Below are positions 1,210 to 4,942 of a stretch of DNA of 64,000 nucleotides, piece by piece; the stretch's first letter is position 1; each line of letters starts with the position of its first letter. The stretch spans positions 324,353-388,352 of the forward strand of contig CAWBMM010000002.1 in NCBI GenBank assembly GCA_963789855.1, given 5' to 3'. The DNA is from an uncultured Actinomycetota bacterium (GTDB taxonomy: Bacteria; Actinomycetota; Actinomycetes; JACCUZ01). A program made the position numbers and the translations under genes. The notes below the pieces were generated by a model that was not told the DNA's origin, made no database searches, and saw only the letters and a list, made by a program, of their open reading frames with translations.

Positions 1210-1301
1210 CCTCTCGTCGGTTCGCGGTGCGCCGGTTCGCGGTCCGCCGTCCCGATCAGGTCATCAGGCCGCGGCAGATCAGGTCAGATCAGGCCGCGGC
1301 G
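1210..1301. repeat. Cluster of short tandem direct repeats between the PLD-like and LuxR genes
   Basis: cggttcgcggt at 1218-1228 and 1233-1243. atcaggccgcggc at 1263-1275 and 1288-1300; the second copy encodes the last LuxR codons (stop tca at 1284-1286). gatcagg occurs three times. Confidence 0.8.
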
Positions 1302-2255
1302 CGCTGCCTCTCTACCCGCCTGGAAACGTGTCTGCGCACCCAGCTCGTCCATCAGCGTCGCGATCCGCCGCCGGACCGTGCGCAGCGAGACCCCCAGCTG
1401 CCGGGCGATGCTCTCGTCCTTGAGGCCCAGCTGCAGCAGCCGCAGCACCGCCGCCGTGTCGTCGCCGGCCGGCCCGGCGGGGTCGACCGCGGGCAGCGGG
1501 GTGCCCCGGCTCCAGTACTGCTCGAACAGGTCCCGGACCAGGGCGACCAGCGCGGGTGCCCGCACCAGCAGGGTGCCGTCGGAGCCGCCGCCCCAGGCGG
1601 AGGAGACGAAGGCGATCTCGGTGCCGAACACCGCGATCGACGGCAGCGCCTGCGACATCAGCCGCACCGTCTCGCCGGCGTCCGCCCAGTGCCGGACGTA
1701 GGCCAGCCGGGCGGGGTCGCCGAGGATGTCGCTGGGGTAGAGGCCGCGCATCGGGCGGCCGGCGGCGAGCTGGGTCTCGAGCAGCTCGACGTACGCCGGG
1801 GAGTCGACGTCGATGTCCACGGCGGGGTGGCTGGACAGCACCTCACCCGTCGTACCCCGCTGGACGTCCTCCGCGGCGGCGAACGACTCGTCCAGGCTCA
1901 GCAGCTCGAACGGCAGGCTGGACCACGCCCGGGACTGCCCCACCATGTGGTCGGCGGCGAAGCCGGCCAGGCTGGCGCGCACGGCGTCGATGCGGGCGCG
2001 CCGGTCCTCGACCTCGGAGAGCTCGACGTGGACCAGAGCCGCCAGCGTGGTCGCCGGGGAGGTGGGCGCGAGGTCGCCGCCGAGCCGGGCGACCAGGCCG
2101 ACCGCCAGCAGCCCGTCGACGGCGTGCTCGGCGGCGGCCCGGTCCAGGCTGAGGTGCCGGCAGAGCTCGTCGAGGTCGTAGGACGGGTTGCGCAGCATCG
2201 TCCGGTAGAGGGTCTCGGCCACGTCGTCCAGGCCCCAGACCTCGAGGGCGCTCAT
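1284..2255 (-). CDS. LuxR-family transcriptional regulator (C-terminal HTH)
   Basis: Intact 323-aa ORF. The C-terminus LGLKDESIARQLGVSLRTVRRRIATLMDELGAQTRFQA is a typical LuxR/GerE helix-turn-helix. The N-terminal domain was not recognised. Confidence 0.75.
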   Translation of the reverse strand: MSALEVWGLDDVAETLYRTMLRNPSYDLDELCRHLSLDRAAAEHAVDGLLAVGLVARLGGDLAPTSPATTLAALVHVELSEVEDRRARIDAVRASLAGFAADHMVGQSRAWSSLPFELLSLDESFAAAEDVQRGTTGEVLSSHPAVDIDVDSPAYVELLETQLAAGRPMRGLYPSDILGDPARLAYVRHWADAGETVRLMSQALPSIAVFGTEIAFVSSAWGGGSDGTLLVRAPALVALVRDLFEQYWSRGTPLPAVDPAGPAGDDTAAVLRLLQLGLKDESIARQLGVSLRTVRRRIATLMDELGAQTRFQAGREAARRGLI

Positions 2256-2465: not shown

Positions 2466-2531
2466 GAGCTCAGGGCCGGCTCAGGGCCGGCCGGCTCAGG
2501 CCAGCTCGCGGCCGGCTCAGGCCAGCTCGCG
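2466..2531. repeat. Tandem duplication spanning the DUF3151 stop codon
   Basis: Exact 21-nt unit gccggctcaggccagctcgcg at 2490-2510 and 2511-2531. Shorter gctcagg-containing copies at 2468 and 2479. The gene's stop codon (tca 2517-2519) is inside the second unit. Confidence 0.9.
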
Positions 2532-2927
2532 GACCGCCGTCGGGCTGCTGTCGGCCAGGAACTGCGCGCAGCGGGCCGCCTCGTCGTCCTCGCCGATGGC
2601 GCCGGCCGCGCTCCCCAGCGCGTGCAGCGAGCGCAGGAACCCGCGGTTGGCCTCGTGCTCCCACGGCACCGGGCCGTGCCCCTTCCAGCCGTTGCGGCGC
2701 AGCACGTCCAGCCCGCGGTGGTAGCCGGTGCGGGCGTAGGCGTAGCCCTCGACGACGCGGCCGTCAGCCAGCGCCGCCTCGGCCAGCGTGGCCCACGCCA
2801 GGCAGGACGTCGGGTGTGCCGCGGCGACCTCGGCGGGCGGCGTGCCGCGCTCCAGCGCCTCGCGCGGCCCGGCCTCGTCGGGCAGCAAGGTCGGAGCCGG
2901 CTCGCCCAACAGGTTCTGGTGCGTCAT
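2517..2927 (-). CDS. DUF3151-like conserved actinobacterial protein
   Basis: ORF 2517..2978. The likely start is the internal ATG at 2927 (MTHQNLLGEP...). The sequence resembles the small conserved protein usually found near fba in actinobacteria; family assignment is from memory. Confidence 0.6.
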   Translation of the reverse strand: MTHQNLLGEPAPTLLPDEAGPREALERGTPPAEVAAAHPTSCLAWATLAEAALADGRVVEGYAYARTGYHRGLDVLRRNGWKGHGPVPWEHEANRGFLRSLHALGSAAGAIGEDDEAARCAQFLADSSPTAVRELA

Positions 2928-2969
2928 GCCCGCGATCCTGCCACCCGCTTCGCCGCCACAGCCCCGGAT

Positions 2970-3048
2970 GTCGACCACGTTGGGTAGGCGGTGGCAGGCG
3001 ACAACAGGCGCCGAGTCCTGTTGTGGCCTGCTCCCGCCTGTTGTCGCC
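2970..3048. repeat. Left inverted repeat of the DUF559 cassette
   Basis: The outer 39 nt (gtcgaccacgttgggtaggcggtggcaggcgacaacagg) match the reverse complement of 4240-4278 at 38/39. Inner part: hairpin ggcgacaacagg-N8-cctgttgtggcc plus a further cctgttgtcgcc. Confidence 0.9.
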
Positions 3049-3123
3049 GGTGCCGCGAGGTGCCGCCTGGCGAGCTGCTGCTGGCGGACGCCGAGGCGGG
3101 CTGCCGATGCCGCGTACGCCGCG

Positions 3124-4095
3124 TCAGGCGCTCGGCTGCTCGCGCTCGGCGGCGCGGCTCAGGGCCGCCCGTACCATCGCGGGAACCCTGCCGGGCACCA
3201 GCAGGTCGCTCCACGTCCAGCGCACGACCTCGAAGCCGAGCCCACGCAACCGGTCCTCGCGGCGCTTCTCTCGCCACAATGCCTCGGCCGGCGAGTCGGG
3301 AGCGAGACCGTACTTCGCCCGGCCGTCGAACTCGCCGAGGACCTTCCGCGGCAGCCAGCCGAGATCGGCGTACCCGACAAGACCACCGGCGTCGCGGACG
3401 GGGACCTGGAGGTCGGTGGGATCGAGCCGGGCTTCCAGCAGAACGGCCCTGGACAGGCTCTCGCCAGGGTTGGCCGCCCGGCCGTCGGCCCGGCTCACCG
3501 CACGGGAGGCGCCGAGGGCACCCGGCCACGACGCGCAGCAGAAGAGGACCTCGCGCACCTCGTCCTCGGTGGCGCCCGACCGCAGGGCCGAGTCGACGGC
3601 GGCCAGCCCGGTGGCGAAGTCGCGGGTCCGGGCGATGTCGATGGCGGTCCGCGCGGCTGAGGTCACCCGGACGCCGTCAACCTCCCGGACGTGCCCCGGT
3701 GGCAGCGACCCGGGATGGTGATGGACCCCGGCCTCGGTCCGCGACGCCGGCAGCTCGGGCCGGGTCAGGTGCAGCAGGTCGAGGGTCGGCTGCAGCAGCG
3801 GGAGGCCGACCCAGACACCGCCGGTCTCGTGGCTGAGGGCTGCCGGAGCCTTGATCGACAGCAGCAGCGCCTGGGTGTCGACCCGGTGCCGGCCCAGCGG
3901 GTCGAGCGCGTCGTACGTCGGGCGGACGGCGTACACACCTCGCCGTACCGAGTGGATGACCTGGTCCTTCCGCAGGCGTTGCAGCTCCTCGTGCTGGTGA
4001 CCGGCGGCGTACGCCTGGGCAGCCGTGAAGACACCGAGCTGGGCGGTCATGACCTGACGCAGCCCCGGCCCCGGGACGAAGTCGGCTGCTCGCAT
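3124..4095 (-). CDS. DUF559 domain protein with AbiEi-like N-terminal domain (restriction-endonuclease-like fold)
   Basis: ORF 3124..4227. The likely start is the ATG at 4095 (MRAADFVPGPGLRQVMTAQLGVFTAAQA...). The C-terminus GEFDGRAKYG...REKRREDRLRGLGFEVVRWTWSDL is typical of actinobacterial DUF559 proteins. Confidence 0.75.
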   Translation of the reverse strand: MRAADFVPGPGLRQVMTAQLGVFTAAQAYAAGHQHEELQRLRKDQVIHSVRRGVYAVRPTYDALDPLGRHRVDTQALLLSIKAPAALSHETGGVWVGLPLLQPTLDLLHLTRPELPASRTEAGVHHHPGSLPPGHVREVDGVRVTSAARTAIDIARTRDFATGLAAVDSALRSGATEDEVREVLFCCASWPGALGASRAVSRADGRAANPGESLSRAVLLEARLDPTDLQVPVRDAGGLVGYADLGWLPRKVLGEFDGRAKYGLAPDSPAEALWREKRREDRLRGLGFEVVRWTWSDLLVPGRVPAMVRAALSRAAEREQPSA

Positions 4096-4199
4096 GCCTC
4101 GAGGATCGACCGCCCCGGGCGTCGTCGCCGGCTCGGGGACCCAGACTGTGGACGACATCCGCCGGCGGAGCGACCTGTGGACAGCCGTCTGGCGCTCCG

Positions 4200-4278
4200 G
4201 GCAACAACAGGCGCTGGCCGGCGACAACAGGTCTCGGAGCCTGTTGTCGCCTGCCAGCGCCTACCCAACGTGGTCGAC
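4200..4278. repeat. Right inverted repeat of the DUF559 cassette
   Basis: ggcaacaacagg-N8-ggcgacaacagg-N8-cctgttgtcgcctgccagcgcctacccaacgtggtcgac. This mirrors 2970-3048. Confidence 0.9.
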
Positions 4279-4311
4279 TCCAGGGGGGTGGGGACTCGAC
4301 CGGTCAGGGGG

Positions 4312-4387
4312 CCAGCTGGTCGGGGCGGGGAACCTCGGGGCCAGCTGGTCGGGGGGCGGGGACGGGGTCAGCTGGTCGGGGCGGGGA
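4312..4387. repeat. Three tandem ~27-30-nt copies spanning the stop codon of the secreted-protein gene
   Basis: ccagctggtcggggcgggga (4312-4331), ccagctggtcggggggcgggga (4341-4362) and tcagctggtcggggcgggga (4368-4387). The third copy carries the stop codon (tca 4368-4370). Confidence 0.85.
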
Positions 4388-4942
4388 CCTCGCTCTCGGG
4401 GGTCGTGGCGGGGGTCGGCTCGGCGGTCGTCTCGGGCGGGGCGGCGGCGACGCGGTGCGCGACGGCCGTGACGGTGAAGGTGACCGGGTCGCCGGCAACC
4501 AGCGGGGCGACCGGGGTGACGTCGACCTGGTGCGACTTCACCACGACGTGGTCACCGGGCAGGACGGCGGTCAGGTCGACGACGCCGCCGCGGGTCACCT
4601 TGGCGTCGGGCGGCGACGGTGACCGTGACGGTGGCACCGCGCAGCACCTTCCAGCGGCCGCCGTGGACGACGAAGGTCAGCGTGCCTGGTGCGGCCGGCA
4701 CGACGTCGGTGGCCACCACCGGTGCCTGGACCGCGGTGACGGTGCCGCCGAGGACGAAGGACCGGTGCGAGCGGGCCTGCACCTCGAGCCGGTGGGCCGC
4801 GGCGCGGGCCTTGGCGGCCTGCGACCGGGAGTGGCCGGCCGCCACCATGGCTGCCTGGTCCGGTGTCGGCCACGGCGACGGCCGGTGCCGCGATCATGGC
4901 GACGGCGACGAGCAGCGAAGCAGAGACGGTACGAGCGCGCAC
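4368..4942 (-). pseudogene. Secreted protein of unknown function, split over three frames in this sequence
   Basis: Signal peptide MRARTVSASLLVAVAMIAAPAVAVA in the 4942 frame. The body continues in the 4848 frame (…TVTAVQAPVVATDVVPAAPGTLTFVVHGGRWKV…), then in the 4637 frame to a Pro/Thr-rich tail. Frame switches fall near 4850 and 4630. Confidence 0.5.

Follow-up and report, generated by a model that had tools for sequence, protein, structure and literature searches.

An AbiEi-type gene with a Vsr-like nuclease domain between mirror-image arrays of predicted protein-binding sites: a candidate rarely relocating cassette of Actinomycetota

AbiEi proteins belong to type IV toxin–antitoxin systems, and the representatives from Streptococcus agalactiae (AbiEi) and Mycobacterium tuberculosis (Rv2827c) bind pairs of 23-bp inverted repeats near their own genes, with one monomer per repeat and one or two such repeat pairs in each promoter (PMC7319586). 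EDxHD homing endonucleases such as I-Bth0305I join a Vsr-fold catalytic domain to a separate DNA-binding part, which spans a long pseudo-palindromic site; the footprint of I-Bth0305I is ~60 bp (PMC3239194). Here we describe positions 2962–4286 of a stretch of 64,000 nucleotides (nt) from an uncultured Actinomycetota bacterium (contig CAWBMM010000002.1; this whole 64-kb stretch is called the window), where one gene with features of both protein types is enclosed by two inverted, palindromic arms between the fba neighbourhood and a DUF3151 gene. With moderate confidence we consider this segment as a self-contained and rarely relocating type of cassette, widespread in Actinomycetota, whose protein would bind its own ends. 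Many unrelated chromosomal sites carry the unit of arm, gene and arm, whose boundaries fall on terminal motifs and which lies nearly flush with the stop codons of neighbouring genes. Close relatives lack it at the matching site, and in another close relative a different lineage replaces it. The cassette combines a protein and operator of the AbiEi type with a unit that resembles insertion sequences, homing genes or REP/RAYT systems, but it lacks defining features of each of these mobile-element families.

The two arms of the window (left arm 2962–3059, downstream of the gene; right arm 4189–4286, upstream of it; neither is assigned to a strand) are inverted copies of 98 nt with 83% complementarity and 1129 nt between them, slightly longer than the inverted repeats of the original prediction. 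A blastn comparison of the 480 nt upstream with the 480 nt downstream of the gene yields E = 3e-26, and the outer 39 nt (2970–3008 against the reverse complement of 4240–4278) show the single difference (38/39) that had been reported. The 12-mer GGCGACAACAGG is present in six copies with at most one mismatch, four of them exact, starting at 2997, 3017, 3037, 4200, 4220 and 4240, again as announced; at this stringency it occurs nowhere else in the window, shuffled sequence contains 0.67 copies on average, and none of 100 shuffles gave six. Within the window the 21-mer GTCGACCACGTTGGGTAGGCG is found at the two cassette ends only, and the same holds for the terminal motif GTCGACCACGTT, which fits the family consensus GTYGAYCACGTW and marks the outer end of the left arm (2970–2981, plus strand) and of the right arm (4267–4278, minus strand). 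Each arm carries four 12-bp half-sites oriented > > < < with a spacing of exactly 20 bp, namely at 2977, 2997, 3017 and 3037 in the left array (2977–3048) and at 4200, 4220, 4240 and 4260 in the right one (4200–4271). The outermost half-site of each arm (2977, reading ACGTTGGGTAGG, and 4260; positions read off the sequence) is degenerate and overlaps the terminal motif. Both arms are imperfect palindromes able to fold on themselves, as was foreseen, with stems of 23 nt and loops of 8 nt in place of the proposed 12-bp stems. The right-arm palindrome (23 bp/8 nt/23 bp, 4209–4262) pairs 4209–4231 with 4240–4262 at 96% and the left-arm stem is formed by 2986–3008 and 3017–3039. The z-scores of the single-stranded DNA folds are −5.4 (right arm) and −3.7 (left arm), and none of 200 shuffles folded equally well. 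Besides being inverted copies, the two arms are also direct repeats of each other.

Such ends are not confined to the window. One genome per species was scanned with an alignment of homologues, which gave 80 loci at 35–63% protein identity from Nocardioides, Rhodococcus, Cellulomonas, Geodermatophilus, Microlunatus, Pseudonocardia, Gordonia, Tomitella, Angustibacter and many metagenome-assembled genomes. For each gene 450 nt upstream were compared with 450 nt downstream, with an inverted repeat accepted at E < 1e-6 and with coordinates shifted by 2.2–3 kb as control. Flanking inverted repeats were detected at 62 of 75 testable loci (35–75% identity, many genera) and at 1 of 287 shifted controls. 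Other family members therefore possess the same kind of ends, so that the refuting condition set by the original prediction does not hold, and by these ends gene and arms make up a defined unit. Among 18 loci without a two-arm match, 11 contain one palindrome that is stronger than any in 101 background windows. Orthologues with 73%, 75% and 63% identity share the neighbourhood of the window (fba, X, DUF3151, PLD, diacylglycerol kinase, purA) and carry flanking inverted repeats of their own. Members are located in the complete genomes of Angustibacter sp. McL0619 (NZ_CP188257.1, ~294–303 kb) and Prescottella agglutinans RHO4 (NZ_CP158802.1, ~3.776–3.785 Mb) and on the 3.5-Mb contig CAWCFV010000002.1. 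The family is large: with one representative per 50%-identity cluster, a search recovered 9,259 proteins at E ≤ 1e-3, of which 4,453 reach E ≤ 1e-10; its members are annotated as hypothetical protein or as "AbiEi family antitoxin domain-containing protein". No member was found in phage records or among IMG/VR viral contigs, plasmids yielded four weak matches (three Tsukamurella records and one from Collinsella), and no defence-island context of the cassettes was found. Some loci deviate by showing several arm-like tandem repeats in place of a single arm on one or both sides of the gene: L044 (3353–3621 and 4897–5279), L067 (3400–3598 and 5000–5459) and L068 (3767–3844 and 5032–5134).

The site between fba and DUF3151 was surveyed by a metagenome scan with the DUF3151 protein (80 loci). 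L085 and L133, whose flanking genes are the closest to those of the window (fba 90%, DUF3151 85–88%), have no cassette, and the fba stop codon and the DUF3151 start codon overlap there as ATGA (L085 1440–1470, L133 1905–1935). The impression of an insertion between the fba neighbourhood and DUF3151 is thereby confirmed, and the empty sites that had been called for exist. L085 nests within the occupied clade of the DUF3151 tree, and in many other genomes the gap between fba and DUF3151 measures only 9–36 nt. The overlap at the empty sites would imply translational coupling of the two genes; occupied sites were seen to have a separate Shine–Dalgarno leader (GGGTGGGAGGATCGSGGG), which is common to hosts of different cassette lineages. 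At the empty junctions of L085 and L133 neither a palindrome nor a relic was found. Therefore homing of the gene into the loop of a pre-existing palindrome, the alternative that the original prediction had offered, is unsupported at this site. An insertion into a pre-existing hairpin was also rejected from the flanks, which are C-rich reading inward: their pairing scores were 8.2 of 16 within loci versus 7.95 between loci, i.e. they share C-rich composition only and have no locus-specific complementarity.

The same site is filled in at least 13 loci (including L092 and L101) by cassettes with proteins that are 32–100% identical to that of the window. In a distance tree these occupants are polyphyletic and form at least four lineages, interleaved with members from other sites. 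The most telling case of mobility is the replacement seen between L101 and L003. Over 1128 nt the flanks of L101 and L003 share 92% of their nucleotides, the L101 cassette belongs to a different lineage (nearest relative L016-like, terminus GAATGATCACG), and homology resumes at the DUF3151 leader just beyond the terminal motif. In L004 no room is left beside the arms, which extend from the stop codon of fba up to 13 nt ahead of the start of DUF3151. Over the whole set of loci the upstream neighbour is co-directional in 47 versus 15 cases and the downstream neighbour convergent in 48 versus 14, and the arm ends abut 3′ ends of neighbouring genes with a median distance of ~27 nt to the end of the neighbouring open reading frame (ORF). 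The first cassette pair at unrelated sites has proteins with 71% identity, further pairs at unrelated sites are 60–71% identical, and cassettes that share a site can have proteins of as little as 50% identity. Two genomes are represented twice, with old paralogues of only 60% and 48% identity and different arms, and the window contains a single copy. From these patterns we infer that relocation is real but rare and that inheritance appears to be vertical otherwise; the cassette may be selfish, as the original prediction proposed.

Inverted repeats of 98 nt around a single gene could also constitute an invertible DNA switch, in which recombination between the arms flips the gene. We regard this as the least credible of all explanations because no recombinase is present, the promoter apparently lies inside the unit, and the orientation of the gene relative to fba and DUF3151 is constant in every occupied site examined.

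At the same intergenic site the 266-nt spacer of L102 (2736–3000) has no cassette gene and contains nested palindromes (GGCTGAAACGG...CCGGTTTCAGCC), repeats of GGTTGGCC, and the pair CTTCACCCG...CGGGTGAAG at a distance of ~230 nt; it may be a relic of another cassette lineage. In L003 the public ENA contig begins (positions 1–60) with a poly-T run followed by the Illumina adapter CAAGCAGAAGACGGCATACGAGAT, and owing to this assembly artefact at the contig end the upstream arm of its cassette is cut off.

The cassette gene (3124–4095, minus strand) is the single coding frame between the arms, with a G+C content at third codon positions (GC3) of 0.89, so that the reading of one enclosed gene was correct. 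Its start is most likely the ATG at 4095 and not the TTG at 4227, which gives a protein of 323 aa, the length of the closest homologues. The original prediction had described an AbiEi-like N-terminal and a Vsr-like C-terminal domain under the label DUF559. The first part stands firmly, since residues 56–243 of the long ORF match the AbiEi model of PADLOC at 1.7e-20. Pfam recognizes AbiEi_4 in 30 and AbiEi_1 in 8 of 33 homologues, which carry PF13338 and PF09407; the window protein itself reaches E 0.13 only for Pfam AbiEi and has no significant match in Pfam/NCBIfam. An AlphaFold (AF2) model based on the 33-sequence alignment (pLDDT 93, pTM 0.88) shows a winged helix and an AbiEi C-terminal domain in residues ~1–215 and a putative Vsr-like PD-(D/E)xK domain in residues ~225–323. 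With Foldseek the first ~210 residues find S. agalactiae AbiEi (6y8q, E 2.8e-5, probability 1.0). For the last ~100 residues there are weak matches only, all of them PD-(D/E)xK nucleases: Vsr with probability 0.90 (1cw0, E 0.25) and 0.60 (1vsr), the homing endonuclease I-Bth0305I (3r3p, target TM 0.71, E 1.7), and further an R2 retrotransposon protein and the XisH family. The Vsr-like fold is thus retained weakly, whereas the label DUF559 has to be given up: PF04480 was matched neither by the window protein (up to E 10) nor by any of the 33 homologues (up to E 1), and REase_MTES_1575 gave two weak matches only. D235 and D244 are invariant over the 33 homologues, and E255, D257 and K261 are kept in at least 90% of them. 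The motif E-x-D-G-x-x-K resembles E-x-D-G-x-x-H, a motif of DUF559. Sequence searches of the PDB with the single sequence and with a profile returned nothing meaningful, and matches to the RNA polymerase beta′ subunit (E ~0.006) were discarded as compositional. The protein is probably an AbiEi-type DNA binder with an added Vsr-like nuclease domain, which is predicted to be active.

As in the AbiEi systems mentioned above, this protein has a winged helix and the AbiEi C-terminal domain, and the DNA that we regard as its ligand consists of 23-nt repeat pairs near the gene, in the cassette 8 nt apart. Unlike these systems, the cassette has no adjacent AbiEii (DUF1814) toxin gene, neither in the window nor at orthologous loci, and possesses the extra Vsr-like domain. 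A further difference is that a second, mirror-image copy of the array follows the gene and that the unit behaves as an insertion. The upstream repeat pairs lie ~94–190 nt before the start codon and, unlike the AbiEi operator, would not overlap the promoter.

The arms of the family have a constant order from outside to inside with the terminal motif, a locus-specific hairpin and a further gene-proximal half-site. The consensus GTYGAYCACGTW occupies the outer end of 40 arms in at least 20 loci; the terminal motif is sometimes palindromic, as in CACGTAAACGTG, and a subfamily from Nocardioidaceae has TTACCAAGGTATGCAGG. When anchored on the dyad axis, the half-sites are recognizably homologous over 41 loci. 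Of 42 gene-proximal extra half-sites, 36 have an offset of exactly +20 bp and 41 one of 19–21 bp. This rigid phasing of two turns, together with a half-site outside the stem, fits a protein array on one face of the duplex and not a stem-loop. Because the hairpin core is a 23-bp inverted-repeat pair as it is bound by AbiEi, each arm can be read as a double-stranded array of putative cognate sites for the encoded protein. The original prediction had compared the hairpin ends with IS200/IS605 elements, in which the HUH protein TnpA acts on subterminal single-strand hairpins. This comparison fails on the 20-bp phasing, on the half-site outside the hairpin and on the mismatches of the hairpins, which show no bias of G:T over A:C; moreover, unlike in IS200/IS605, there is no HUH protein, the cassette ends are mirror images and no strand asymmetry is seen.

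A function of the arms at the level of RNA, with the 5′ and 3′ arms pairing in the messenger or serving as terminator or stabilizer hairpins and without any protein binding, would agree with the strength of the hairpins, with the position of the downstream arm within a few nt of the stop codon in many loci and with arms that abut the 3′ ends of neighbouring genes. It is nevertheless very improbable. Hairpin mismatches comprise 46 of the G:T type versus 48 of the A:C type and the differences between the arms 298 versus 269 (with 717 transversions), i.e. there is no excess of G:U-compatible changes on either strand, and because of this missing wobble asymmetry RNA-level readings were marked down. 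Neither the 20-bp phasing nor the outside half-site is needed for a stem. A search of both strands against Rfam 15 gave no family at threshold; the sub-threshold matches were generic hairpins (the best at 32–34 bits versus a gathering score of 80), among them miRNA models and Chloroflexi-1 (31.8 bits versus 80), and were dismissed. In addition, a −10-like hexamer GATCCT (4102–4107, minus strand) is located 6 nt ahead of the ATG. In the alignment GATCCT-N6-ATG is kept in L001 and L003 and appears as CAGGCT-N6-ATG in L004, which suggests a leaderless transcript starting at 4095. The upstream arm would therefore lie ahead of the core promoter and outside the mRNA. A scan for consensus sigma-70 promoters and intrinsic terminators found none, with a tool that is not tuned to actinobacteria.

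Between orthologous loci arm identity is higher than that of fourfold degenerate sites and of the spacer, with the fourfold sites near saturation (0.37–0.55). For the pair L040/L052 the identities are 0.94–0.96 in the arms, 0.51 at fourfold sites and 0.55 in the spacer, and for L040/L077 they are 0.69–0.70, 0.38 and 0.50, respectively. Upstream and downstream arms are equally conserved. Judged from these substitution patterns, both arms are under purifying selection.

Extra arm-like copies of the same specificity were observed 1–4 kb away from the cassette in five loci, within an estimated ~0.5 Mb of flanks. L004 contains a complete solo palindrome (2227–2320) with terminal motifs on both sides, the same half-sites and a fold z-score of −7.6. 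It takes up the whole spacer that separates the genes for a SpoU methylase and a GNAT acetyltransferase, at a distance of 3.5 kb from the cassette, and has a CCCCG-rich run on its left. In L022, L024 and L034 the extra copy is one gene away. In L034 (4995–6108) a gene for Ku (non-homologous end-joining) has the downstream arm of the cassette next to its 3′ end and, 75 nt before its start, a third palindrome of the arm type, and in L022 (GH3 glycosidase) and L024 (ABC transporter) one convergent gene is bracketed in the same way. The neighbours of the extra copies (GH3 glycosidase, ABC transporter, Ku and, in L004, GNAT acetyltransferase) are unrelated housekeeping genes and so share neither a regulon nor a cargo. 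The complete solo palindromes may be deletion relics, non-autonomous copies or extra operators; a relic is conceivable because recombination between the arms in direct register would delete the gene and leave one palindrome.

These copies invite comparison with REP/RAYT systems, where the palindromes are the dispersed, replicating entities and the gene would encode their single-copy, vertically inherited nuclease. The cassette resembles them by a single-copy, mostly vertical gene between inverted cognate palindromes (present in 62 of the 75 cassette loci), by occasional solo palindromes elsewhere, in the five loci at least one gene away, and by long persistence in a lineage; such properties are likewise described for RAYTs and REPINs (PMC3337134; bioRxiv 10.1101/2022.05.22.493013). 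The differences outweigh these likenesses and make this explanation improbable. The cassette protein combines a winged helix with a PD-(D/E)xK nuclease and is unrelated to the HUH/Y1 tyrosine transposases of the RAYT type. REP sequences are single-strand hairpins of 20–40 nt, whereas the cassette palindromes look like phased double-stranded binding arrays of 80–100 bp. A REP population numbers tens to hundreds of dispersed cognate palindromes per genome; none is seen within the 64-kb window, where neither the 12-mer nor the terminal 21-mer has a copy outside the arms. Long palindromes are rare in general (16 in ~1 Mb of locus sequence, most of which are arms of the cassettes), and the complete solo palindromes can be explained as deletion relics, the arms being also direct repeats.

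The main rival explanation is a resident, non-mobile regulator or defence gene, i.e. an AbiEi-type repressor fused to a toxic nuclease as a one-protein toxin–antitoxin or abortive-infection module. Its two-sided operator arrays would loop the DNA or act as roadblocks or terminators that keep expression tightly off, and its patchy distribution would result from ordinary horizontal transfer and loss. Membership in the AbiEi family and the known autoregulation of AbiEi by pairs of 23-bp inverted repeats speak for it, as do low copy number, long vertical residence, purifying selection on arms and catalytic residues, and placement between convergent genes, where insulation from read-through matters. 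We consider it unlikely all the same, as it accounts for long residence and selection but leaves the precise end points unexplained. What is transferred stops at the terminal motifs and includes no other cargo, which random transfer would not produce, and different lineages occupy the same 10–20-nt gap in different hosts. In most loci the downstream arm borders the 3′ end of a convergent gene, where it cannot serve as a promoter operator. There is no AbiEii partner and no defence-island context; phage and viral collections contain no member of the family, and plasmids hardly any.

Several observations weigh against our own preference for a relocating cassette. Target-site duplications, which the original prediction had proposed to look for, were absent from all 18 loci with well-defined ends. 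Between the arms there is no transposase (DDE, HUH, serine, tyrosine or DEDD) or other strand-transfer enzyme, exactly as had been claimed, and the single ORF with AbiEi and nuclease-like domains is all they enclose. All pairs of cassettes with proteins at least 72% identical share their flanks. As strand-transfer enzyme, target-site duplication and near-identical relocated copies are all missing, active transposition is only a possibility. Persistence at one site to 50% identity and arms under selection also fit a resident gene that benefits its host, and the trees behind the lineage assignments are neighbour-joining trees of short proteins. The nuclease assignment builds on weak fold matches (Foldseek E 0.25–1.7) and conserved residues, with no match to Pfam DUF559. 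Half-sites and protein domains co-vary with Spearman rho 0.15–0.22 in every domain, so the winged helix tracks half-site divergence no better than the other domains do. Finally, the upstream arm is further from the start (~94–190 nt) than a classical AbiEi operator that overlaps its promoter.

Compared with established mobile elements, the cassette resembles insertion sequences in being a single-gene, intergenic unit with inverted ends that carry a conserved terminal motif and several predicted internal protein-binding sites. It differs from them by the lack of DDE, HUH, serine and tyrosine transposases and of target-site duplications, by the lack of near-identical multiple copies (a single copy in the window, diverged paralogues in the two genomes represented twice) and by very slow relocation. 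With homing endonucleases it shares a multidomain protein with a putative Vsr-fold domain beside a separate DNA-binding part and the patchy occurrence in a short gap between conserved genes, which is empty in close relatives and can be occupied by different lineages, again with no target-site duplication. In contrast with these enzymes it is chromosomal in Actinomycetota and not a phage or intron gene, its match to the Vsr fold is weak, and it carries long mirror-image arrays at both ends, which homing does not need.

If the cassette relocates as we propose, its protein would bind the four sites of each arm, and this binding would both control the gene and mark the two ends. The nuclease domain would make DNA breaks for relocation or for spread into empty sites, and host recombination or repair would complete the move without target-site duplication. 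That the Vsr fold can drive homing is known from I-Bth0305I. The GC-rich palindromic arms would double as terminators that insulate the cassette. We further put forward, as a tentative idea that is possible rather than probable, that such cassettes form a new class of mobile elements with a winged-helix protein plus PD-(D/E)xK nuclease in place of any known transposase. In this class the protein would recognize four phased sites per end, and its cuts would fall at the GTYGAYCACGT termini or at empty targets (candidate position at or beside GTCGACCACGT, or in the empty site), and host recombination or end-joining would finish the move, again with no target-site duplication. One genome could then harbour several long-lived lineages that differ in half-site specificity and act as orthogonal systems, and complete solo palindromes would have arisen from them by deletion or as non-autonomous derivatives.

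The neighbours of the cassette in the window are DUF3151, a small secreted protein and fba. The DUF3151 host gene (2517–2927, minus strand, Pfam 2e-56) lies outside the cassette and its Shine–Dalgarno leader (2928–2950), which is common to hosts with a different cassette lineage, begins ~12 nt beyond the left arm. Between DUF3151 and PLD a helix-turn-helix gene (LuxR/TrmB-like) is present in the window (1284–2255), in L004 (7713–8702) and L085 (2103–2963) and also in L086, L092 and L122. It is absent from L001, L003, L006 and L101, where PLD follows directly after DUF3151, and represents a second presence/absence polymorphism of this neighbourhood. On the other side, just outside the upstream arm, a stretch very rich in G-runs (4304–4400) contains three direct copies of ~23 nt of GGGGCCAGCTGGTCGGGGCGGGG (4308–4330, 4337–4359 and 4364–4386) with a spacing of 27–29 nt; on the minus strand it would code for a Pro/Arg-rich tail. 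An ORF with a signal peptide (4595–4942) and the ORF 4368–4637 are in different frames and, because of this, the small secreted-protein gene between fba and the cassette may contain a frameshift or be mis-read. Inside the cassette the spacer 4108–4188 has two copies of GTCCACAG (CTGTCCACAGG and TCGTCCACAGT) 29 nt apart, which resemble TTGTCCACA, presumably the core of the actinobacterial DnaA box. CACAGG-like motifs after the arm occur also in L001, L003 and L019. As parts of the array these DnaA-box-like repeats (4096–4188 and some orthologues) were rejected, being out of phase with the half-sites.

Full-text searches found no description of this cassette architecture in the literature covered. 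In a Rhodococcus genome five AbiEi-domain proteins, not necessarily of the cassette family, are reported against three AbiEii toxins (PMC12915292). Proteins of the cassette family get counted as components of toxin–antitoxin systems and, given a self-contained unit with two cognate arrays, the annotation of such genes should change. For a protein whose function is not known, the arms provide an explicit candidate DNA ligand. Should the unit prove to move by means of its nuclease, bacterial mobile DNA would gain a new enzyme class, together with a case of homing-like spread that is chromosomal and independent of phages. Otherwise the unit would represent an unusual two-sided operator architecture for a potentially toxic nuclease.

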